From: Patescibacteria group bacterium
GTDB taxonomy: Bacteria > Patescibacteriota > Microgenomatia > UBA8517
NCBI GenBank assembly: GCA_026416845.1
Contig: JAOAEL010000006.1
Coordinates: 390-64,389, forward strand
DNA length: 64,000 nucleotides
Direction: 5' to 3'
Shown here: positions 44,399-58,366 of the stretch, in pieces
Numbering within the stretch: the stretch's first letter is position 1
Layout of the letters: each line of letters opens with the position of its first letter
Position numbers and translations under genes: made by a program
Notes under the pieces: generated by a model
What the model was told of the DNA's origin: nothing
The model's database searches: none
The model's input: only the letters and a program-made list of their open reading frames with translations

Positions 44399-44824
44399 TT
44401 ACTTCAAATATTCAGCCATAATTTTTTGGCGATCTCTTTCAAGTTCATCAAGTTGTTTTTCAATACCTGCGCTTATTTCCTTGAGGTCATCACGCACACT
44501 CCAGTTACTAGTTCTATTTATATATGCCCAATGCTGTAAAAGTTGTTTCCTGCGATTATCCATAGCTTCGTTCAGATATTCAAATTGCATATGCTTAGGA
44601 AGTTCATGCCACTCGGGAAAAGTCGACAAATAAGTCACATCATACTCGCCATATTCAATTGCTTGTCTAAGAGTAATTCTCTTTTTGGAACTAGATGATT
44701 TAGCTTTTGGAATTTCCGGAGTTAAATCTTTTTCAAAAGAATCCGAATCTTTGTCTTGATTATAGTCGTCAGACATAAAACAAAAACTATTTTTGCTGGC
44801 GCTAATTAACTTTAGTATAAACAA
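44399..44824 (-). CDS. hypothetical protein
   Basis: 141-aa ORF; start may be internal (MSDDYNQ). Confidence 0.4.
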   Translation of the reverse strand: MFILKLISASKNSFCFMSDDYNQDKDSDSFEKDLTPEIPKAKSSSSKKRITLRQAIEYGEYDVTYLSTFPEWHELPKHMQFEYLNEAMDNRRKQLLQHWAYINRTSNWSVRDDLKEISAGIEKQLDELERDRQKIMAEYLK

Positions 44825-44856
44825 AATTTAAGCACTATCAATAATTATTGATTATA

Positions 44857-45288
44857 TTACCCATTCACTTTATTTTTTAAACAACATTTTTCCGAGGTAA
44901 TACATTCACCTTTAACACTCAATAAGCCTTCGTTTTCACTAAACTCTGGTTGACAACATGAAACAACAAGACAACGCAAACAACTCAAACAAGCAAGCGT
45001 CAATCGATCTTTTACCTTGGGAATTTTTGCTCCGCTTGCCGGAACCTGTTCTTGCAAAGATAAAGATTCAAAATCATAAAAAAACAAATAAACAGGACCT
45101 CGAGCGCTTCCTTCAACCAATAAACAGCGATCTTCAATACCGGCAAGATTCCCATGTATAATATCAGCATGATAATTTTGTTCACTATTCGGACTGCAAT
45201 CAAAATGCGCTAAACAATTTTGACACACTATTCTCAACACTACTTCACCTGACAAACCAACTGGCAAAACAAATTTCCTTTCTTTCAT
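44857..45288 (-). CDS. Cys-rich hypothetical protein (possibly YceD/DUF177-like)
   Basis: 143 aa with paired Cys clusters (CQNCLAHFDC…, CLSCLRCLVVSCC); 4-nt overlap with ftsH. Confidence 0.45.
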   Translation of the reverse strand: MKERKFVLPVGLSGEVVLRIVCQNCLAHFDCSPNSEQNYHADIIHGNLAGIEDRCLLVEGSARGPVYLFFYDFESLSLQEQVPASGAKIPKVKDRLTLACLSCLRCLVVSCCQPEFSENEGLLSVKGECITSEKCCLKNKVNG

Positions 45289-47153
45289 AATTTGCTATTC
45301 TTTTCAAAATTTACTATCTTTTCAAATTCATCTCTTTCAAGCGTTTCTTTGGCAAGAAGAGCGTTAGCTACATCGTCAAGCTGTTTTCTATGCTTTTTTA
45401 GAATAATCAAAGCCTGTTCGTATCCGGAATCAATAATTTTTTTCACTTCAGCATCTATTTTCTCCTGCATCGCAGGCGAAACTTGGAAACCATCAGCCAA
45501 AAAACCAAAATCAGGATCAGGTTGGGGAGACAAATTAATAGGGCCTAAAGAACTCATGCCAAAATCCGTCACCATTGCTCTTGCCAGAGCCGTAGCGCGC
45601 TCTATATCGTTTGATGCTCCAGATGTCATTTCGTTAAATATCAACTCCTCAGCAGCTCTACCACCAAGCATTGCGGCAATTTGATCAAGCATGCGAGATT
45701 TGGTTTCATGTGTGCGATCCGCGGCCGGCGGAATAAGAGTATGCCCCAAGCTCATTCCACGAGCGACTATTGAAATTCTATGTACCGGATCCATCTTAGG
45801 CAAAAAGTGTGTAACAATTGCATGACCAGATTCATGGTAGGCGGTAATTTTGCGATCCTCTTCCGATTGCAGGCGTTTTTTGGCAGGACCTAGTTTTACT
45901 TTGGTTGCGGCTTCTTCTATGTCTACCATCTCAATTTCTTTTTTGTTTTCACGAGCCGCCTGTATTGCCGCCTCATTAAGCATATTTTCAAGATCTGCCC
46001 CAGAAAAACCAACAGTCCTGTCGGCAACTCGTTCCCAGTTGATGTTTTTCGCAAATTTCTTACCTTTTGCGTGAATTTTCAAAATTTCTCTCCTGCCATC
46101 CCTGTCGGGCATGTCAAGCGTCACTCTTCTGTCAAATCTCCCCGGTCTTAAAAGCGCAGGGTCAAGCAAATCGCCTCTGTTGGTGGCGGCAATTACAATG
46201 ACATTGTCATTCGGAGTAAATCCATCCATTTCTACAAGAATTTGATTAAGCGTCTGCTCGCGTTCATCATGTCCTCCCATCACTCCACGCCCTCTTTGTC
46301 TGCCAATAGCGTCAATTTCGTCTATGAAAATTATTGAAGGAGCGGCAGCTTTTGCCTGAGCAAAAAGATCTCTCACACGAGAAGCTCCCACTCCAACAAG
46401 CATTTCCATAAATTCGCTTCCCGCCATTGAAAAAAATGGCACTCCAGCCTCGCCAGCAACAGCTTTGGCAAGAAGTGTTTTGCCAACACCCGCGGGACCA
46501 AAAAGCAAAACACCTTTAGGGGTACGAGCTCCAATATTTTTGTACTTTGTTGGATTTTTCAAAAAATCAACTACTTCCTCAAGTTCTTTTTTAGCGTCGT
46601 CAACTCCTGCAACATCCTTGAAAGTTACATTTTGTTTGCCTTTGGCAAAAAGTCTGGCTTTGCTTCTGCCAAAAGAAAAGATATCCTGCGCACCTTTAGT
46701 TTGGGCTTTAAGTATAAAAAAGAAAAAAGCCGCCATCAAAACAAGAGGCAAAATTAAACCCAAAAAGTCGCTTGCAGCTCGCGACAAAGACTGATCTACA
46801 ACTTTATAAGGAACAGTTGAAGGATCTACTCCCGATTTTTCAAGCAAGTTGGCAAGGCTGTCAGAGGCTTCTTTAGTGCTAGTTTTTACCGATCCGTCCT
46901 CATAAGTTAGTATAAGCTTGCTATCTTGAACTAAAACTTCTTTCACTTTGCCATCCTTTATATCCCTTATAGCCTGTGAAATATCCACACGACTATTGGT
47001 TCGTTGAAGGTCAATAATAGATACTATCACTGGCAAAAAGAAAATTATCAGAAAAATGGCAATCAATATTTTCCAAACATTTAACTTAAGCTTTAATTCA
47101 AACAAAGCCTTTTTTTTGCCGTTTTTTTGTTTATTTTGATTTAAAATTTTCAT
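45285..47153 (-). CDS. ftsH: ATP-dependent zinc metalloprotease FtsH
   Basis: N-terminal TM helices, Walker [27 protein letters not shown] region, zinc site HESGHAI. Confidence 0.95.
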
Positions 47154-47706: not shown

Positions 47707-48537
47707 ATGACAGATTACGATCCTTACATTTGGTCAATTAGTAAAGAAAATACTAACAAAGAATATGTGCCAAATATCAAAAGAGCGGGCTTACTGAATA
47801 AAAACCGGGAATTTGCCGATTTCTCTGAGCTGTGGAACCCTATCCAAGAAAAAATTCCAGAAACATTCTTAAGAACAATAGCTGTTATAAATTTCGCAAG
47901 AGCAGAGGATCCCGGAGGACAAATTTTCGCCAGAAAACTTTATGGTGCACCTATAATTGGCAAGCACGAAGAAACTTCCTTTGTCGATGAAAAAACCCAA
48001 ATGAGACAAAGCTTAATATACATGAATGTTGACAAAAGTGTAAAAATTACAAAAGAAGAGTTTAGAGCCGTTCTTGTCCACGAAATAGGGCACGCCGTTT
48101 TCAGAAATTTAAAAGAAGACGAGCTAGAAAGGTGGTCTGCTATCGACACAGTTGAAAAAACTAGTGTCTCCGAATACGTTTCTGATAGAAGGAAATCCGG
48201 CAAACAACAAGATACAGTCAAAGACGATTTTTGCGAAAGTTTCGCCCTTTTTGTAGAAATTCCTGGATTATTAAAAATAATTGCGCCACAAAGATATGCA
48301 TACATGGAAAAATTATTTAGCAATCATGACGAACCTTTATTGATAGCAAAAAAAAGAGAAAACAGAGAAAGAGAAGTGGAAAAATACCAAACTGAAATGA
48401 GAAATCTGGGTTGGGATGAAGAAAAAATTCGTGCCGGTTATCAAGATGGTAAAAGATATCCATTAAACTGGATACCTCAATACATCCAAAAATACACTAA
48501 CACTACAAATACACCTGAAAGAGAACAAACAGAGTAA
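47707..48537 (+). CDS. putative zinc metallopeptidase-like protein (HExxH)
   Basis: AVLVHEIGHAVF motif; otherwise uncharacterised. Confidence 0.5.
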   Translation: MTDYDPYIWSISKENTNKEYVPNIKRAGLLNKNREFADFSELWNPIQEKIPETFLRTIAVINFARAEDPGGQIFARKLYGAPIIGKHEETSFVDEKTQMRQSLIYMNVDKSVKITKEEFRAVLVHEIGHAVFRNLKEDELERWSAIDTVEKTSVSEYVSDRRKSGKQQDTVKDDFCESFALFVEIPGLLKIIAPQRYAYMEKLFSNHDEPLLIAKKRENREREVEKYQTEMRNLGWDEEKIRAGYQDGKRYPLNWIPQYIQKYTNTTNTPEREQTE

Positions 48538-48622
48538 CAAATTAGCTTTGATCAAGAACACATTACTAAAATACATTACTTAAGCAAGCAAATTGGTTTT
48601 GAATTAAGTGAAAATTAAAAAA

Positions 48623-49624
<1,002 letters not shown>

Positions 49625-49692
49625 CTACAAACTCAAAGTACTCTATTATCTCAAAAAAGGTAAGGAAAAACACTTGAAAAAAGAGCAGATAA

Positions 49693-50682
49693 CTATTGCC
49701 TTGTCGGAGATCTAGTAGTAATAGTAGGAACTTGCTCATCAGAATTTCGTCTTAAACTAGAACTAGGCAACAACACAACAGCATTAAAGCTCTTACAATA
49801 TTTATCACCAGTTTCATCTGTAACTTGGAGAGAAAATGGAGAGTTAACTATTTCATCAAGAACGGTATACTTAGAAGCATGTTCAGATCGAGCATAAGCT
49901 TCGTAAAGGGTATTACCCACAGGGGAAGTATCATACTTGCTTACTAAATCAGCTGTCCAAATTAGATCTGGTTTTTGAGTAAAACCAGTAAAAAAAGAAT
50001 CTTCTTTGGTATGGTAGGAACGCATAGAGTAAACTATGCCTCTTGATCCTAGATTACTATCCAAAAAACTTCTTAAACTTTGAGCTGCAGTTGTATCAGA
50101 ATTTGGCAAACTTTGCTCACCTAAACAAACCACTTGAATTCCCAAATTTTTTGCCACTAATAAAATTGAAGCATATCCAATACCATATTCTTGTCTAAAG
50201 TCATGCAAAATTCCATCATCATCACCTTTGATGTAACGATTCATCCTCTCTTCCCAACTTTTACTAATATCTAAAGCAATAAAAGAAATCAATTTTCTAT
50301 CTTTATTTCCACTTATCAGAAGTGAAGAAACAAACTCAGACTCAGCAAGTACTTTATCTGGATTACCCATCTCTCCAGCTTTAAAACACAAAATTCGAGC
50401 ATGGCCACTTGCAATTCTGTTTAGTATAGAATCTATCGCGTTTTTACCATGCTTATCTATATAATCAACTTGCTCAGAAGTAACCTCCTCAGAAGGAACA
50501 ATCGGTAAAGATTCACAATACTTTTGGGCTTGGTCGAGTTTTTGTTGGTGGTACTTTTCATCAAAATATCCTTTTAAAACCGATCCCGTTACGACTAAGG
50601 AACCAATTCGTCCCAAAAGTCCCAAAACATTACGTCTGCTAACACGATATTCTCTTCGAGATTCTTCGGGTATCTCGGACAT
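49693..50682 (-). CDS. hypothetical exported protein with Tat-like signal
   Basis: N-terminus SRRNVLGLLGRIGSLVVTGSV (twin-arginine-like); 329 aa. Confidence 0.5.
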   Translation of the reverse strand: MSEIPEESRREYRVSRRNVLGLLGRIGSLVVTGSVLKGYFDEKYHQQKLDQAQKYCESLPIVPSEEVTSEQVDYIDKHGKNAIDSILNRIASGHARILCFKAGEMGNPDKVLAESEFVSSLLISGNKDRKLISFIALDISKSWEERMNRYIKGDDDGILHDFRQEYGIGYASILLVAKNLGIQVVCLGEQSLPNSDTTAAQSLRSFLDSNLGSRGIVYSMRSYHTKEDSFFTGFTQKPDLIWTADLVSKYDTSPVGNTLYEAYARSEHASKYTVLDEIVNSPFSLQVTDETGDKYCKSFNAVVLLPSSSLRRNSDEQVPTITTRSPTRQ

Positions 50683-50776
50683 AAGATTGTAAGTATTTAA
50701 AATAAACTAGCCAATAAACTAAGCTAGTACTAGTTTAGGGGCAACTTTAAAATAAAGTCAATACTCAAATTTATTG

Positions 50777-50850
50777 TGCCAGGGGCGAGATTCGAACTCG
50801 CGACCTTCGGTTTATGAATCCGATGCTCTAACCAACTGAGCTACCCAGGC
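50777..50850 (-). tRNA. tRNA with CAU anticodon (elongator Met or Ile2-lysidine type)
   Basis: Reverse complement GCCTGGGTAGCTCAGTTGGTTAGAGCATCGGATTCATAAACCGAAGGTCGCGAGTTCGAATCTCGCCCCTGGCA: anticodon loop UUCAUAA, G1-C72 pair, no GGG/CCC in anticodon stem (so not the initiator). Confidence 0.75.
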
Positions 50851-50960: not shown

Positions 50961-51030
50961 TGCGGGGTAGTGTACGGCTGCACGGGAGGCTCATAATCTC
51001 CCAGGCTGGGTTCAACTCCCAGCCCCGCAA
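50961..51030 (+). tRNA. second CAU-anticodon tRNA, unusual (U1-A72, short D-loop)
   Basis: TGCGGGGTAGTGTACGGCTGCACGGGAGGCTCATAATCTCCCAGGCTGGGTTCAACTCCCAGCCCCGCAA: acceptor TGCGGGG/CCCCGCA, anticodon loop CUCAUAA, T-loop TTCAACT; 70 nt. Confidence 0.55.
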
Positions 51031-51352
51031 CATATATCACACTTAATAACTTAAAAGAAGACAAAAAAGTAAAAATTACTTTCAGGCCAATCATAGCGAT
51101 AGAAATAATTGTTCAAAAAAAATTTCTTAATATAGTTATTCTCTAAACTTTAAAAAATGTTTTTTAAGCCTAATTATAATTTAATTCTTGTGCCAAGAAG
51201 AAAAAATTTAAGTCAAATTTGTCACAAAAGGTTAAATCACAAATGAAAATTTAGAATATTGGCACGGACTACGTTCAAACACATGCCAAGCAAACCATGA
51301 CTGAAAACTAAAAAAACATACAACATTTATTAAAAAACTGAATAAACAAAAA

Positions 51353-51760
51353 TCAGTTATAAAAAATTTTTAACCACATTTCCCAATTAGAAACCTTTTC
51401 TTCTTTTACATCATCATAAAGCCTGGGAACAATTTTTCTTAATTCATCTTCAGAAGGCAAAACAACCACTATCTCTCCTTGCCTTGCCATACCAAGTTTG
51501 TCCCGTAGCATTTTTTCCGCAAAATAAAAATCATCTGTTTCTTTTAACTTTTCTTTAATCTCTGACTGTTTATCCAACTCTACCTGAACTTTTTGTTCGT
51601 ACTTGGAAACAATATTGATAGCACTAAAATACTGAAATAAGGTTTTAAAAAACGAACTTAAAAAAAGCAAAAGAAATACAATACCTGTATAAAAAACAAT
51701 TTTGGAAAATTTACTTTCTTTTTGGGAAAAAACATTTCTTTTTGAAACTATTTTATTCAT
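51353..51760 (-). CDS. FtsB/DivIC-like septum formation initiator (tentative)
   Basis: Single N-terminal TM helix, coiled-coil, C-terminal AEKMLRDKLGMARQGEIVVVLP resembles the FtsB/DivIC family C-terminus. Confidence 0.45.
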   Translation of the reverse strand: MNKIVSKRNVFSQKESKFSKIVFYTGIVFLLLFLSSFFKTLFQYFSAINIVSKYEQKVQVELDKQSEIKEKLKETDDFYFAEKMLRDKLGMARQGEIVVVLPSEDELRKIVPRLYDDVKEEKVSNWEMWLKIFYN

Positions 51761-51904
51761 ACAATTTACAATAAAAACATTGACCTGTTTTTAAAAACTA
51801 TGATACCATTGTTCAAATAATATAATAACTTACCATTTATTTTAGTTTAAATATAATACAAATTTCACAAATCTAAAATTTTATCAACAAAAAATCAAAA
51901 ATTT

Positions 51905-52768
51905 ATGATAAAAAACAAGTTATATGAACTCCTTCCTTTATTTGCAGAACATCTTAAAAACAAAGGTCGATCTCTTGCAACAATTTTCGCTTACAAAGCA
52001 GATATTGAACAATTAATAGAGTATCTTAACAAAAATGCAAAAACTACTCCCACACAAGTTACAAAAGAAGACATTGATAATTTCCGCGACACTTTGTTAA
52101 GAAGAAAATATGTTCCAAAATCAGTTTCCAGAAAACTCAATGCAATAAAAACTTTTTTCAAATGGCTACTTGATAACAAGTATATAACTAAAAACGTTTC
52201 TGAATACGTAGAACACCCAAAAGTTAATGTTGAAAAACCCAAGTTCATGAGTCCACTTGAGTACCGCGCTCTTCGGGATGCATCCCGCGATGACGAAAGA
52301 ACTGGAGGAATAATCGAGCTCATACTACAAACAGGACTTAGAATATCCGAAATCAGCAACCTAAAATGCTCAAACATTTCAGATAAAGAAATTTTAATTG
52401 AGGCATACGCAACCCAACCATCAAGAAAAGTACCACTAAATAAAAGGGCTAAAGAAGCAATTGAAAGATATAAAAAAGTCCGCCCCGAAACGAAATATCC
52501 TCATTTTTTCGTAAGCAAAAGTGGCAAACCTTTGGCAGTAAGAAACATCAGAGCATCAATTGATAGATACATGCAAAAAGCTGAAATTCAAAACTTTTCT
52601 GTAAACGATCTAAGAACAACATTTATCGTAGAAAATTTAAAAGCAGGAGTTGATGTGATATTAATATCTCAAGTTTCAGGGCATAAAAGAATTTCAACAA
52701 CTGAAAAATATTTGGAAATTATAGGTATAAAAGATCGTGGCAAAAAACAGGAACTTATTGAGTTATAA
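51905..52768 (+). CDS. tyrosine recombinase (XerC/XerD-like integrase family)
   Basis: N-terminal SAM-like domain (SLATIFAYKADIEQLIEYL), catalytic-domain boxes LRISEISNL, NDLRTTF, SGHKRISTTEKYLEI (Tyr); both box II His residues are replaced (N, T). Confidence 0.75.
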   Translation: MIKNKLYELLPLFAEHLKNKGRSLATIFAYKADIEQLIEYLNKNAKTTPTQVTKEDIDNFRDTLLRRKYVPKSVSRKLNAIKTFFKWLLDNKYITKNVSEYVEHPKVNVEKPKFMSPLEYRALRDASRDDERTGGIIELILQTGLRISEISNLKCSNISDKEILIEAYATQPSRKVPLNKRAKEAIERYKKVRPETKYPHFFVSKSGKPLAVRNIRASIDRYMQKAEIQNFSVNDLRTTFIVENLKAGVDVILISQVSGHKRISTTEKYLEIIGIKDRGKKQELIEL

Positions 52769-53390
52769 TTTAAGACAGAAAAGTAAGAAGAATGTTTTTA
52801 GCTTCCAACCAAAATTAGCTTTTTAAATAAACCTTAACTCTCTAAGAGACAAAACCCAAACAACACATTCACCTGTTACCAAAGATAAAGCTAATACTTT
52901 ACAAGAAATCAAGATACGATAACACTACACCCTCTTTTTTTCAAAAACAACACCCAAAGACTCAGTGTAAAGCTTATATTAAACTACCACACGACTCTTT
53001 ATTAATCCTTAGGTAACAGAGGATACCTATTGGTCTCATGTCCCCTAAATTTCTCACTAAAAGTTACATAAGAAACTACCAATTCACCCTCTTTTTTAGG
53101 TTCAACTTGGGCACAATTTTCCACTGAAAATCTATCTTTTACCAACATCTCCAAACTCCTAGACATTCTAGCTCACCTCCTTTTTTACATCCTGTAGACC
53201 TGAGAAAAAGATCTTTATTGTTGAGTTGTTAGCTGTAGTGTAGCAAACGAACGCGTTTTCCGTTAATAATCACCATGACAAATAACTATCGTCCGTGAAG
53301 AGCAATTATATCAGCCTTTGCTTGTTTCCTATTAATCTCAACCCGCTAAAGCGCCAAAATCACTCAACAAAGATATGTAACTGACGACAC

Positions 53391-54760
53391 CTAACAACAC
53401 CGTATGTACTGCAAATTAGACAACCCTCTTTTTGTATTCTCATTTGTCAAATACAAATTGTAAAATAACGTGTAACTCAAACCTTCTCGATCTTCGCCTG
53501 GCACAAAACATACACATACAATTCCAAAACTAAACACACAAGATAACTTTCCTCTCAAGAGGAGAGTTCCAAAGGTGACTTCAAGTCTTTTCCTACTAGT
53601 CAAAACTAATCTTTCTGCCAAATCACAATACTTTTTATCAACATCATAGGAAACATATTTTCTGCTCGTTTTTATAGCCGCTATGCAAGTAGTCCCACTG
53701 CCAGCAAATGGATCTAGAACAATTTCATCTTCAAAAGTATAAAGTTGTATCAATAGTGCCTTTTTTTCTTGTGAGGATTTAATCTGGTAAATGTGCTTTT
53801 ACAAAACACAAGAATGTATTCATGGACATCGCGTAAAACTGGATTGTTAGCCTTTAAGTATGTCCCCCAAGCTGTTGAAAAACTAGCTCTACTGCCTTTG
53901 TTCCAAATAATTTATCCCTTCATTAAAAAACCAATGTTGTGCATATCTTCAATTATGTAGCTATGTAATGGTAAGTAAGGCTTCCTGCCAAGATTGGTTA
54001 TATTTACGCAATCTCTACTACCGAGGGATGAATAAATGTTTTTTTAAAAACGCTTTTTAATAGTTCTCTGTATTCATCAAGAGACAGATTTTCATCATAC
54101 TCTTTGCCTACATTATAGAGCGGCGAAGTAACCATTAGTGCACATTGTTATCTGGAAGCTCTGACATGGGTTGGCTACTTTTGCAAAAAATTTTATTTAT
54201 ATTTTGAGGATCAATTTGATTTTCTACATATTCAACATCTTTGACAATGCTTAAACCTTGATAAAGTTTGCTGTTATAAAACCTATAAAAATCATGACTT
54301 ATGTAACCCGGCGTACCAAAAGCGATTGTCTGTATTCCATTTTTCCTAAGATTGCTCAAATTTCGTTTTGCCATGCTTTCTGTTATCTAGATTCACGTAA
54401 TAACTGTAAAAATTTCTGTGCCTTTTCCTCGTAAGTAACTTCCTTATTTGCTAATTCAATAATTTCCCCCAGCTCTTTTTTGTTTTGGATACTAGAAAAA
54501 AACTCCCTCTCTTCTCTCAAAAGATTTACAGCGCTTTCTTGCAACTTTCCATACAAGTCAAATTTACAAAAACCTCCAAATGGGGTTTCCTTTATGCTTC
54601 CGCCATTATTATCCAAAGATCGTGGATTAATAGACCAAAATCCCTGAATAATTCCGCTTCTCTTTAAATGGTCTACTTTACCATAATAGCTTTTAGTAAT
54701 TGGAGTGTTACCAACAACAATAAAAGGAGTTTTTGCTTTGCAATGCTGTTTTATCACCAA
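53391..54760 (-). pseudogene. N6/N4 DNA methyltransferase (beta class) decayed into several out-of-frame fragments
   Basis: 53391..53753 encodes the C-terminal motif I LDPFAGSGTTCIAAIKTSRKYVSYD. A different frame just upstream encodes IIWNKGSRASFSTAWGTYLKANNPVLRDVHEYILVFCKS, and a third GRKPYLPLHSYIIEDMHNIGF. ORFs 54135..54374 and 54383..54760 may be N-terminal remnants. Confidence 0.55.
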
Positions 54761-55282
54761 AATAATTCTTAGACCAGTAGGCTAAGCATCTTTTTTTCCT
54801 TGGTAATATAAAAAGCTGTTCAGGAGCTAAAAAATCTAAAGATTTGATAAAAAATTTTTTTGTAATCTTGATTCCAAAGCTTTGCCATAAAATCATTCTA
54901 ATAATTTTTAATTATTTAAAAATTAACAACAACTAAAAAATTTATTTAAGTAAACAATCCTAAATTAGGAATTAGTTAAAAACTAATCCTATTTTTGGAA
55001 ATAATCATTAGATACATCAAAGCATGCTTGAGAAATTTACAACATTAATTCTTCTAGTTTGTTTTATATTAGCAAGTTCAACAAAGTTTAATGCTTTAAT
55101 TTGATCAATACAGTTTTATTCTGTATTTAAAAAATTTGCAAAAATAAAGCAATAATTCCTCTTTAGATTATTAAACATAAAATTAATCAAAACAAAATAT
55201 TGCTAAAGTTTTATCTTACTTCGTAAAATTTACCAGCCACCAACTTTATTTTTGCTTTTATTAATGTTATAGTCTCTCTGCA

Positions 55283-56356
55283 ATGAGAATTGATAACGAT
55301 GTAAAGCTTGATTATTGTGATGTTTTGCTCCGCCCCAAAAGAAGCACATTAACAAGTCGAAAAGATGTTGTACTAGAAAGAACATTCAAATTTTACCATT
55401 CTAAAAAAACATGGACAGGTGTTCCAATAATGACTGCCAATATGGCAACCTGTGGAACTTTTGAAATGGCCAAAATTCTATCTGAACACAAAATAATTAC
55501 AACTTTTCATAAATATTACGAAATCGAGGAATATAAAAAATTCTTTTTAGAATTTGACAATCCGGATTATATTGTCTACACCACAGGGATTCGCGATGAA
55601 GACTTTGCAAAAATTGCTAAGATGAAAAAGGCTAAACTAATGAATAAGTTTAGTTTCATTTGTGTTGACGTCCCTAACGGATACCTTGAAAGATTTGTCG
55701 AAAGCATAATAAGAATACGTAATGAATTTCCTGATCATATAATTATTGCTGGAAACGTGGTCACAAATGAAATGACTGAAGAAATAATTTTATCAGGTGC
55801 GGATATCGTAAAGGTTGGAATTGGCTCAGGAGCCGCTTGTACTACAAGGAAAATGACCGGAGTTGGATATCCGCAATTATCTGCGGTAATTGAATGCGCA
55901 GACGCGGCTCATGGAATATCAAACACGCAAGGTTACGGTTTAATAATTGCCGACGGTGGGCAACAGTATCCCTCCTGTGTCGCCAAAGCTTTCTGCGCAG
56001 GAGCTGATTTCAACATGATGGGATCAATGTTTTCTGGTTTTGAAGAAAGCGGTGGAGAAACCGTCATTAAAAATGGCAAAAAATATAAGGAATATTTCGG
56101 ATCATCTTCAAACCACGCGCTAAAAAAATTCTATGGCAAAAAAGATTTTCATCGCGCTTCAGAAGGCCGTTACACTTTAATTCCTCACAAAGGTTCAATA
56201 AATGATTTTTTGCAAGACTTGTTTGGTTCTTTAAGAAGTACTGGCACATACATAGGGGCACGATCTTTAAAAGAGTTCTCAAAGAGAGCTACTTTTGTAC
56301 GCGTTAATCGACAATTGGCCACACATCTTGAAAAATATGACATCGAAAATCAGTAA
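55283..56356 (+). CDS. guaC: GMP reductase
   Basis: N-terminus MRIDNDVKLDYCDVLLRPKRSTL, catalytic-Cys loop GIGSGAACTTR, 357 aa without a CBS insert (GuaC rather than IMPDH). Confidence 0.8.
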   Translation: MRIDNDVKLDYCDVLLRPKRSTLTSRKDVVLERTFKFYHSKKTWTGVPIMTANMATCGTFEMAKILSEHKIITTFHKYYEIEEYKKFFLEFDNPDYIVYTTGIRDEDFAKIAKMKKAKLMNKFSFICVDVPNGYLERFVESIIRIRNEFPDHIIIAGNVVTNEMTEEIILSGADIVKVGIGSGAACTTRKMTGVGYPQLSAVIECADAAHGISNTQGYGLIIADGGQQYPSCVAKAFCAGADFNMMGSMFSGFEESGGETVIKNGKKYKEYFGSSSNHALKKFYGKKDFHRASEGRYTLIPHKGSINDFLQDLFGSLRSTGTYIGARSLKEFSKRATFVRVNRQLATHLEKYDIENQ

Positions 56357-57057: not shown

Positions 57058-57492
57058 ATGGAAATAATAAATAAAAAAGCGGGATTGAACTTTTTCCTTA
57101 AAGAACGCATAGAGGCAGGGATTGTTCTGTCCGGAGCTGAAGCTCAAGCTGTAAGAAATGGCAGAATAGATCTGAGCAATTCCTATGTCAAAATAATCAA
57201 AGGAGAAGCTTATCTTATAAACGCAAACATTCCAATTACAAATGCGATAAATTACACATCGACAAGATCCAGAAAACTTTTACTGCACAAATCCCAAATT
57301 GTCTCTTTGCATACTAAAACAACAACTCAACATCTAGCATTAATACCAACAAAAGTGTATAATAAGGGACATCTGATCAAACTTCAAATTGCTTTGGCAA
57401 AGGGCAAGAAAAAGTTTGAGAAGAAAAAAGCACTAAAGCTTCGCGATCAAAATCGCGAGGCTCAGGAAGATTTAAAAATAAAGCTTAAATAA
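57058..57492 (+). CDS. smpB: SsrA-binding protein
   Basis: FFLKERIEAGIVLSGAEAQAVRNGRIDLSNSYVKI…TRSRKLLLHK matches SmpB throughout; 144 aa. Confidence 0.9.
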   Translation: MEIINKKAGLNFFLKERIEAGIVLSGAEAQAVRNGRIDLSNSYVKIIKGEAYLINANIPITNAINYTSTRSRKLLLHKSQIVSLHTKTTTQHLALIPTKVYNKGHLIKLQIALAKGKKKFEKKKALKLRDQNREAQEDLKIKLK

Positions 57493-57527
57493 TTACTTGC
57501 TAATTTTAATTTTTATTTCAAAAACAA

Positions 57528-57942
57528 GGGGACGATTTACGGCACTCGACAAATTAGCACATTAAAAACCGCAAGCCGATTTTGATTTGTTATCGTAAAA
57601 AACAAATTAAAAAATCAAACGACAGTGAAACAACTGATCGTTCAGATTATGATGCTCTTGCGTGGGCAACACTCTGTGGAAACAGAGCAAATTCTTGCGC
57701 TTACGCTTTTGCATAATCTGATATCCTTTCGCTTTGTCTTCAAGAAAGTGAAACGGGTATAAACCAACTTGAAGTGCTTTACTAGTACATTGCTATAAAC
57801 TAGTAAATAAGAAATTAGCATTACTTTTATTGATATCTGTCTATCGATACGCAATAAAAGGAAACCAAAAACGATAGACTAAGCTTGTAGTAAGTTTTTA
57901 ATATGACTTTTTTGGAAGAGGGTTCGACTCCCTCCGTCTCCA
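57528..57942 (+). ncRNA. ssrA: tmRNA (ssrA)
   Basis: Begins 35 nt after smpB. The 5' end GGGGACGATTTACGGCACTCGAC and 3' end GGAAGAGGGTTCGACTCCCTCCGTCTCCA form a tRNA-like acceptor (GGGGACG/CGTCTCC) and T-arm; internal ORF ends …GCA AAT TCT TGC GCT TAC GCT TTT GCA TAA (candidate tag …ANSCAYAFA). Confidence 0.7.
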
Positions 57943-58366
57943 CACAAAAAATAGTTTTTTAATTTTTGTTGTATTTATTTTGCATCTAAAAAGACTTTTC
58001 TATAATTAACTTAATTAACCAAAAATCAAAAAATTATATTTAAGCTTAGTTTATGTAACACCCATGATTCAAAAGAGAAAAATAATCATAAAAGTTGAAA
58101 ATTTGTTATAATTTGGCAATATCAAAAAGAAAATTTTCTAACAAAATTGTTTAGTAATTTTTTCAAAAACACATATTAAATCACAAAAACAATAAATTCT
58201 AAAGTTTTTTCTACATATTTAATAATTAGAGAACTTGAGGTAAATTTAACAAAAAGTAAATTGATCAAGTAGCCTATTTTTGAGGTAAAACATACTAAAA
58301 CATACTAATAAAAGCACATCAAACATGCAAAAATTCAACAGTAAAATACAAAAATTACAAAATAAG

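Follow-up and report, generated by a model that had tools for sequence, protein, structure and literature searches.

A conserved Xer-like recombinase gene and, very probably unrelated to it, the relic of a restriction–modification operon in a Patescibacteria contig

Does a tyrosine recombinase gene that is followed by the debris of a DNA methyltransferase (MTase) gene, with tRNA genes close by, mark an integrated mobile element, or do two unrelated things lie side by side? The question is raised by positions 51905 to 54900 of a 64,000-nt stretch (the window) of the Patescibacteria contig JAOAEL010000006.1 (assembly GCA_026416845.1). The window has a GC content of 0.34, is densely coding, and reads cleanly with genetic code 11, and its closest database proteins belong to metagenome-assembled genomes (MAGs) of Patescibacteria and Woesebacteria. 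A sequence-only reading of the locus had proposed the relic of an integrated element or a decayed restriction–modification (R-M) system. In our analysis, the recombinase is very probably a resident core protein of Xer-like type in a Woesebacteria-like patescibacterium, and its gene stands beside an unrelated decayed R-M operon; the two do not form one mobile element. The parties to the question are as follows.

51905–52768, plus strand: intact gene for a Xer-like tyrosine recombinase of 287 aa, with PF00589 and SAM-like domains
53604–54374, minus strand: MTase pseudogene, beta-class N6/N4, PF01555
54383–54888, minus strand: remnant of the partner gene of the MTase, a probable restriction endonuclease gene

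The recombinase neighborhood was compared among ~85 related loci from genomes and metagenomes. These share the order GT4, 5′–3′ exonuclease, FtsH, tRNA-binding protein, TrpRS, one or two tRNA-Met genes, ftsB/divIC on the minus strand, and the recombinase on the plus strand. The recombinase holds this position in the great majority of the loci, with divIC directly upstream (<600 bp) in 74 of them, and neither the MTase nor its partner gene was found in any. At E ≤ 1e-10, the recombinase has 4,278 homologs; the top 120 are 59–83% identical to it, nearly all exactly 287 aa long, and labeled Woesebacteria or Patescibacteria. The dN/dS against two 83%-identical orthologs is 0.05–0.07, indicating strong purifying selection. 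Because the homologs are so many, the dN/dS so low, and the divIC arrangement the same in ~85 loci, the recombinase is a core chromosomal gene of the whole clade, with the constant neighborhood and the dN/dS (~0.05) of a conserved chromosomal gene. It is also the sole tyrosine recombinase in the window. The idea that recombinase and MTase arrived as one integrated element fails on these grounds, since the recombinase is a core gene that ~85 loci carry without R-M genes, and since att sites were not found. The relatives were thought to show whether an insertion is present or absent; the R-M insertion is indeed absent from them, but the recombinase is present at the same position. No element that includes the recombinase is missing from any relative at this locus, and only the R-M relic is specific to the window.

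Where the sequence reaches far enough downstream of the recombinase, almost all loci have tRNA-Ile(UAU) and a gene for a ~770-aa VirD4/TrwB-type membrane ATPase (DUF8128) on the opposite strand. The gap from the recombinase gene to tRNA-Ile(UAU) is 0–3.3 kb in the relatives (only 1–13 bp in several), and that to the ATPase gene is 117 to 3,406 bp. This slot contains a UDP-glucose-dehydrogenase-like gene in 24 loci; TPR proteins also occur, as do, occasionally, PIN/Phd, WYL, bAvd, NUDIX, or LigT genes. The order ftsB/divIC, Xer-like gene, gap, tRNA-Ile(UAU), DUF8128 was seen in loci L001, L005–L008, and L014–L093 and is not present in the window.

The protein itself has the domain composition of the tyrosine recombinase superfamily, with a catalytic PF00589 (Phage_integrase) domain (E 1.5e-25) and an N-terminal SAM-like core-binding domain (PF02899, E 4e-14; PF13495, E 5e-12). 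Its catalytic residues were identified by alignment to the XerD and XerA structures and to family members.

52334–52351, plus strand: GLRISE, R146 kept (XerD R148)
52412–52429, plus strand: TQPSRK, hairpin Lys lost, P172 (XerD K172)
52604–52621, plus strand: NDLRTT, box II His lost, N234 (XerD H244); R237 kept (XerD R247); second box II His lost, T238 (XerD H248)
52676–52690, plus strand: SGH, H260 kept (XerD H270)
52700–52714, plus strand: Y269 kept (XerD Y279)

The substitution of both box II histidines, noticed from the sequence, is real: box II is NDLRTT where Xer proteins read HxLRH. The full catalytic set R-K-H-R-H/W plus Tyr is incomplete, with Lys replaced by P172 and His by N234, and the pocket is R-P-N-R-H-Y as compared with the canonical R-K-H-R-H-Y. 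SVNDLRTTF and TQP, which contain N234, T238, and P172, are kept in at least 95% of the 120 closest homologs. In view of this conservation, the His and Lys substitutions are a clade-wide family trait and not decay. The NCBIfam scores of 149.8 bits for XerC, 148.3 for XerD, and 149.2 for XerA are all below the equivalog cut-offs (335, 330, and 220 bits, respectively), and the protein is accordingly classed by these profiles as Xer-like, not as a XerC, XerD, or XerA equivalog. Viral contigs in IMG/VR contained only distant tyrosine recombinases (23–33% identity). No identical record was found in exact-sequence look-ups for the recombinase or for SmpB, which is encoded further downstream in the window. 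The best PDB sequence match to the recombinase was chain 14 of 9i5v (401 aa), labeled "Ribosome-associated translation inhibitor RaiA"; over ~230 residues it aligns as a canonical tyrosine recombinase (HVLRH, GH, Y), so that label and sequence seem at odds.

The loss of catalytic residues extends beyond this subfamily. We compared 51 clusters (50% identity) in which Asn replaces the first box II His against 57 neighboring canonical clusters.

Hairpin Lys: kept in 5 of 51 Asn clusters and 42 of 57 canonical clusters
First Arg: Arg in 33 and Lys in 13 of 51 Asn clusters; Arg in 56 of 57 canonical clusters
Second box II His: Asn in 31 of 51 Asn clusters; His in 53 of 57 canonical clusters
Tyr nucleophile: Phe in 5 and Ile in 1 of 51 Asn clusters; Tyr in all 57 canonical clusters

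The Asn clade is represented by the window gene (51905–52768), by proteins P0241–P0390, and by L098 (602–1462). A member with Tyr changed to Phe occurs on nine contigs and keeps the same synteny, including the DUF8128 ATPase. Such patterns leave some room, tentatively, for a large Xer-derived clade of candidate phyla whose catalytic site is being dismantled while the gene stays conserved in one neighborhood, and whose role may be noncanonical or even noncatalytic. The protein could, for example, bind DNA and work together with the ATPase when chromosomes are segregated, dimers handled, or DNA taken up. In the subfamily of the window's own recombinase, R, R, H, and Y are invariant, so that this protein may still cleave DNA.

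The other half of the locus is a stretch of 2,514 bp (52769–55282) in which ORFs of at least 130 aa are missing. It is the longest such stretch of the window (the runner-up has 1,545 bp) and agrees with the ~2 kb without an intact gene that had been noted. As had also been noted, MTase motif pieces occur in it in three frames, all on the minus strand; the C-terminal piece matches PF01555 (E 7.8e-16). The spliced MTase pseudo-protein matches intact MTases of ~310 aa with a best E of 3e-128 (68% identity, 97% of the query), a similarity well past anything that chance would give. Intact relatives occur in Calditrichia, Nitrospirae, Spirochaetes, Atribacterota, Acidobacteria, and other phyla, and no close relatives were found in viral contigs. 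When the homolog P0121 was used as a tblastn query, its residues 1–79, 80–113, ~114–206, and 246–295 were spread over the three frames. Motif pieces and lesions of the MTase gene are listed in its reading direction.

~54138, minus strand: lesion, 1-nt deletion
54112–54129, minus strand: TSPLYN, the catalytic SPPY motif mutated to SPLY
~54032, minus strand: lesion, 4-nt deletion
53912–53914, minus strand: lesion, TAA stop codon where homologs have Glu156
53798–53845, minus strand: motif piece NPVLRDVHEYILVFCK
53753–53759, minus strand: lesion, ~109-nt deletion by which the HPAPFP region is gone
53688–53717, minus strand: motif piece LDPFAGSGTT
below ~53604, minus strand: lesion, diverged C-terminus

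Motif IV precedes motif I, the right order for the family, but the frames differ and SPPY has become SPLY. Judged by these lesions, the MTase gene is a true pseudogene of the PF01555 family and not a functional member. The SPPY motif suggests N4-cytosine specificity. Rescue of the MTase by an alternative code or by programmed frameshifting was considered and rejected; other genes are read with code 11, and the lesions include large deletions.

An intact operon in a Calditrichia MAG (locus L013) consists of a helix-turn-helix (HTH) controller gene (86 aa), a gene for a 293-aa protein, and, last, the MTase gene. Its R-M pair aligns continuously with the window from 54888 to ~53604 at 76% nucleotide identity. 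A tblastn search of the window with the 293-aa protein found residues 163–292 (65% identity, E 1e-56) and residues 11–60 (56%). The ORFs at 54383–54760 and 54708–54896, which had been suspected to be part of the relic, are the C-terminal and N-terminal remnants, respectively, of this gene that precedes the MTase in intact operons. Its C-terminal 130 codons are left as the 125-aa ORF 54383–54760, whereas the N-terminal 60 codons (~54726–54888) contain four 1-nt indels.

54864, 54851, 54814, and 54789 (approximate), minus strand: four 1-nt indels in the partner gene
54714–54723, minus strand: ~371-nt deletion by which the PADVA...IIEVK (PD-ExK-like) core of the partner gene is gone

With both genes traced against the intact controller–restriction–modification (C-R-M) operon of L013 and multiple inactivating lesions located, the proposal of a decayed R-M system is upheld, and both R-M genes are dead. 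The partner gene lies directly upstream of a PF01555 MTase gene and in the same orientation in four of four independent contexts (L013, L094, L095/096, and L097), and an HTH gene precedes it in two of them (L013 and L097). It probably encodes a restriction endonuclease. No remnant of an HTH controller was found upstream of it in 54889–55282.

The R-M cassette keeps a GC content of ~0.34 even in hosts with a GC content of 0.40–0.44, and its copies in several other genomes carry inactivating deletions of their own that differ from one another. Because it is AT-rich whatever the host and has its own deletions in these genomes, it gives the impression of a small, mobile R-M module that is often met in the course of decay. 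Decayed R-M operons are common in bacterial genomes. Broken copies were seen in unrelated genomes at L094 (3001–4018), L095 (4799–6114), L097 (2779–4623), and L009 (3266–4933), with split R genes and MTases truncated to 116 or 189 aa. In the Patescibacteria MAG GCA_043824915.1, the relic directly follows type IV secretion-like genes (L095, 469–4642; PrgI, TraC-like, and TraG-type P-loop ATPase), a hint that the cassette may travel on an island for conjugation or DNA uptake. A tblastn search of plasmids with the partner protein gave no match.

The features around the recombinase and the relic bear on whether anything here was inserted site-specifically.

50776–50850, minus strand, and 50961–51031, plus strand: divergent pair of tRNA-Met(CAU) genes, conserved neighbors in relatives
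51353–51760, minus strand: FtsB/DivIC-like gene, 135 aa (Pfam DivIC E 6e-06, just below the family cut-off)
51761–51904: AT-rich divergent intergenic region between divIC and the recombinase gene
52769–53603: noncoding stretch of 835 bp from the recombinase stop codon to the end of MTase homology
54889–55282: very AT-rich spacer (GC 0.21) between the partner remnant and guaC
55283–56356, plus strand: guaC, GMP reductase/IMPDH family, right flank (Pfam IMPDH E 3e-67)

The DivIC call was also obtained for the homolog upstream of the recombinase in loci L006 and L007. In the divergent region, a promoter scan found the σ70-like sequence TTGACC-N18-TACCAT at 51780–51809, which is probably the recombinase promoter; TTGAC-type words recur in the same spacer of relatives. 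The tRNA-Met(CAU) pair had been named as a classic integration target 1–2 kb upstream. The pair is there, ~0.9–1.1 kb upstream of the recombinase start, but it is not an integration target: divIC lies between, and no repeat of a tRNA 3′ end was found. Patterns of 21 and 14 nt from the tRNA-Met 3′ end, searched over the whole window with up to three mismatches, had no match outside the tRNA gene from which they came. The direct and inverted repeats nearby were no more than AT-rich pairs at noise level (70–80% identity), among which a 36-nt pair at 51883 and 54922 was no better than the others. Neither a copy of the tRNA-Met 3′ end nor a convincing direct repeat thus flanks the region, no direct repeat of a tRNA 3′ end brackets recombinase and supposed cargo, and the tRNA-Met pair does not act as an att site here. 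Fragments of tRNA-Ile(UAU), with queries from 59 relatives, were not found in the window either. As a general att site in the relatives, tRNA-Ile was rejected, a partial 3′-end copy being nearby in only 3 of 21 loci. These are 20-nt copies of the tRNA-Ile(UAU) 3′ end (0–3 mismatches) upstream of the gene in L042 (~6647 and ~6819), L037 (~6727), and L023 (~7401), in L042 ~170 bp from the tRNA gene; they could be small att-like duplications.

A dif-like site was sought by way of k-mers shared in both flanks of the recombinase gene in ~75 loci, which yielded only the promoter-like TTGAC words and tRNA words. No palindromic word is shared in either flank. The GC skew is negative across all 64 kb without a switch, and a replication terminus is therefore not close by. 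Beside the recombinase gene, a dif-like site is unlikely, since some relatives leave just 1–13 bp between this gene and tRNA-Ile.

The relic lies exactly at a break of synteny. Neither tRNA-Ile(UAU) nor the ATPase gene was found anywhere in the window, and guaC occupies the place where relatives have tRNA-Ile(UAU) and the VirD4/TrwB-like ATPase. Since these two are missing and guaC is adjacent, the relic is, as far as gene order can tell, at a rearrangement breakpoint. It is followed by guaC, comF, smpB, and the tmRNA gene (ssrA). The 416-nt tmRNA gene comes directly after smpB (57058–57945; Rfam 122 bits), and the tag predicted by ARAGORN is unusually long, with 26 residues (DRSDYDALAWATLCGNRANSCAYAFA). 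The closest relative of the window is the MAG SKYG105 (locus L001), identity to which changes along the window as follows.

42.4–48.4 kb: 97–100%
48.5–49.4 kb (across TrpRS): 89–92%
beyond 49.4 kb: 77% or less

divIC and the recombinase gene are both 73% identical to those of SKYG105 at the nucleotide level (52% and 83%, respectively, as proteins), whereas FtsH is 99% identical. The identity cliff (window 48400–49700, L001 7000–7500) may reflect a homologous-recombination block in either lineage, a region that has long been polymorphic, or a strain switch of the contig in TrpRS. A second pocket of low identity to SKYG105 (33–74%) is found at 44520–45470, inside the stretch of 97–100%, and covers 141-aa and 143-aa ORFs next to ftsH. 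A 329-aa protein encoded at 49693–50682 on the minus strand carries a signal of twin-arginine-like type (RRNVLGLLGRIGSLVV) and matches no Pfam family. With the protein at the corresponding position in SKYG105 it shares only 38% identity, whereas the neighboring genes are 92–99% identical; it is therefore fast-evolving, and it is probably secreted.

Here, we propose a history for the locus based on these comparisons. A small, AT-rich type II R-M cassette that moves between phyla would have been acquired horizontally and would have come to rest 3′ of the recombinase gene, in the slot whose content varies. Presumably, the endonuclease was the first to be disabled, by deletion of the PD-ExK core. 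With no endonuclease to neutralize, the MTase would have been free to decay, and it may then have drifted into a pseudogene through two frameshifts, the stop codon, the ~109-nt deletion, and the change of SPPY to SPLY. A rearrangement that coincides with the relic would have parted tRNA-Ile and the ATPase from the recombinase and made guaC–comF–smpB–ssrA its neighbors. The relic has no present function and is a case of ordinary gene decay; the recombinase, very probably unrelated to it, is assumed from its conservation to be functional.

Several points weigh against this account. The 835 bp at 52769–53603 are without explanation. The longest ORF wholly inside them has at most 54 aa, while a 120-aa ORF of the MTase fragment (53391–53753) runs in. 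They gave no match to related loci by blastn or tblastx, to the slot genes of relatives, or to the neighbors of other R-M copies, and phage blastn, Rfam (E ≤ 1), and Pfam on six-frame translations were all negative. Their GC skew is ~−0.31, like that of minus-strand coding DNA of the same genome, and given this strongly negative skew, they may be an older, unrecognizable gene remnant of that strand. The identity of the partner as an endonuclease is read only from operon position and the PD-ExK-like motif; the protein has no match in Pfam, NCBIfam, or PDB, and the AlphaFold2 model of its homolog P0392 was too poor for use (pLDDT 46.5). The order of events, R lost and then M, is taken from general R-M biology. 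Recombinase activity is assumed from conservation, though two canonical catalytic residues are lost. Finally, the contig could be chimeric or contain a recombination tract, and the adjacency of relic and guaC, seen on one metagenomic contig, is weakened by the fall of identity to SKYG105 to 77% or less beyond ~49.4 kb.

If the recombinase had served as integrase for a mobile element inserted at the two tRNA-Met(CAU) genes, with the MTase as cargo and the whole element in decay, the presence of a tyrosine recombinase, an R-M relic, and tRNA genes within 4 kb would be accounted for, and so would the fact that the segment right of ~49.4 kb, recombinase included, differs in ancestry from the left flank as judged against SKYG105. 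We regard this as extremely improbable, because recombinase and divIC hold the same position in ~85 loci without R-M genes, the dN/dS is ~0.05, the His substitutions are clade-wide, the core gene ftsB/divIC separates the tRNA genes from the recombinase, no tRNA 3′-end repeat exists, and the recombinase family does not occur in viral contigs. The chance is just as slight that the recombinase itself inserted the cassette at an adjacent dif-like site, in the manner of Xer-exploiting (IMEX-like) elements such as the XerS/difSL or XerH/difH modules. Relatives do differ in what the slot just 3′ of the recombinase contains, but gaps of 1–13 bp to tRNA-Ile and down to 117 bp to the ATPase gene leave no room for a conserved dif, the flanks share no palindromic word, the skew does not switch in 64 kb, and no repeats flank the relic.

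An artifact, with the frameshifts as sequencing or assembly errors in an intact R-M system or with a misassembled foreign fragment, might be suspected, as the contig is metagenome-assembled, the R-M genes are in no related locus, and synteny breaks exactly there. The sequence-only reading had held that a conserved chromosomal XerC/D with an intact dif site nearby, together with MTase fragments absent from all relatives, would speak for such an artifact. The recombinase is indeed conserved and chromosomal, and the MTase is not in the relatives, but an intact dif was not found, and the conclusion of an artifact fails because deletions of 371, 109, and 4 nt, together with a nonsense (TAA) codon, go beyond sequencing error and because other genomes contain copies of this operon that decayed independently. 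With the catalytic-motif substitution, the intact surrounding genes, and a GC content (0.33) that matches the host also against it, we consider an artifact highly unlikely. Allelic replacement has a better, though still minor, claim: a block from ~49.4 kb to at least 55.3 kb (the gene of the 329-aa protein, the tRNA genes, divIC, the recombinase gene, and the R-M relic) may have been imported from a more distant Woesebacteria-like lineage, with the relic as a passenger. The stepwise drop of identity to SKYG105, from 97–100% over 89–92% to 77% or less, and the contrast between divIC and recombinase (73% nucleotide identity) and FtsH (99%) agree with it. A chimeric contig or a replacement in the SKYG105 lineage would give the same pattern, however, and there is one close relative only, with the right end of the tract out of view. 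Such an import is compatible with a resident recombinase beside an unrelated R-M relic and concerns only the route of arrival.

In itself, the relic is of little weight, being no more than a trace of an earlier horizontal acquisition and of a rearrangement at the locus. More follows from the recombinase family, which is unfit as a marker of integrated elements in Patescibacteria genomes and whose "mutated" box II is not to be read as decay. What it offers is a Xer-like protein, near-universal in candidate phyla, that has lost part of the catalytic set and whose gene belongs to a constant cluster, together with a divisome gene and that of a VirD4-like ATPase. If this protein does use another chemistry or no catalysis, this would bear on chromosome resolution and segregation in bacteria with tiny genomes.

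Among known systems, the cassette is most readily set beside type II C-R-M operons, with the order HTH, R, M in relatives L013 and L097 and a sporadic occurrence across phyla, AT-rich composition, and frequent decay; the window relic lacks a controller-gene remnant, and the R protein fits no described endonuclease family. Beta-class MTases (TTHA0409, PDB ID: 2ZIE; an N4-cytosine enzyme, PDB ID: 8S9M/8S9N; M.PvuII, PDB ID: 1BOO) have motif IV (SPPY) before motif I (FxGxG), as does the relic, and Pfam and PDB matches were found, but the window copy is a pseudogene. For the recombinase, a full-text literature search brought up no publication about Xer or dif of Patescibacteria. The closest published category, by textual description and taxonomy, is the "Cand" subgroup, described by Smyshlyaev et al. 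2021 (PMC8138268) as Xer-related simple recombinases that belong to unclassified candidate phyla and may take the place of Xer. Taxonomy and the simple two-domain Xer-like architecture fit, as far as a comparison by description goes; the passages on this subgroup that we consulted say nothing about a loss of Lys and His or about the neighborhood of divIC, tRNA-Ile, and ATPase. By analogy with FtsK and Xer, the cluster of divIC, Xer-like gene, and DUF8128 ATPase may form a functional module. Compared with XerD, the recombinase has Pro for K172, Asn for His244, and Thr for His248. It shares its two-domain architecture and length with XerA (PDB ID: 5HXY/4A8E) and XerD (PDB ID: 1A0P), which are among its best PDB matches (E 1e-15 to 1e-19), and, like Xer, it is chromosomal, conserved, and under purifying selection.

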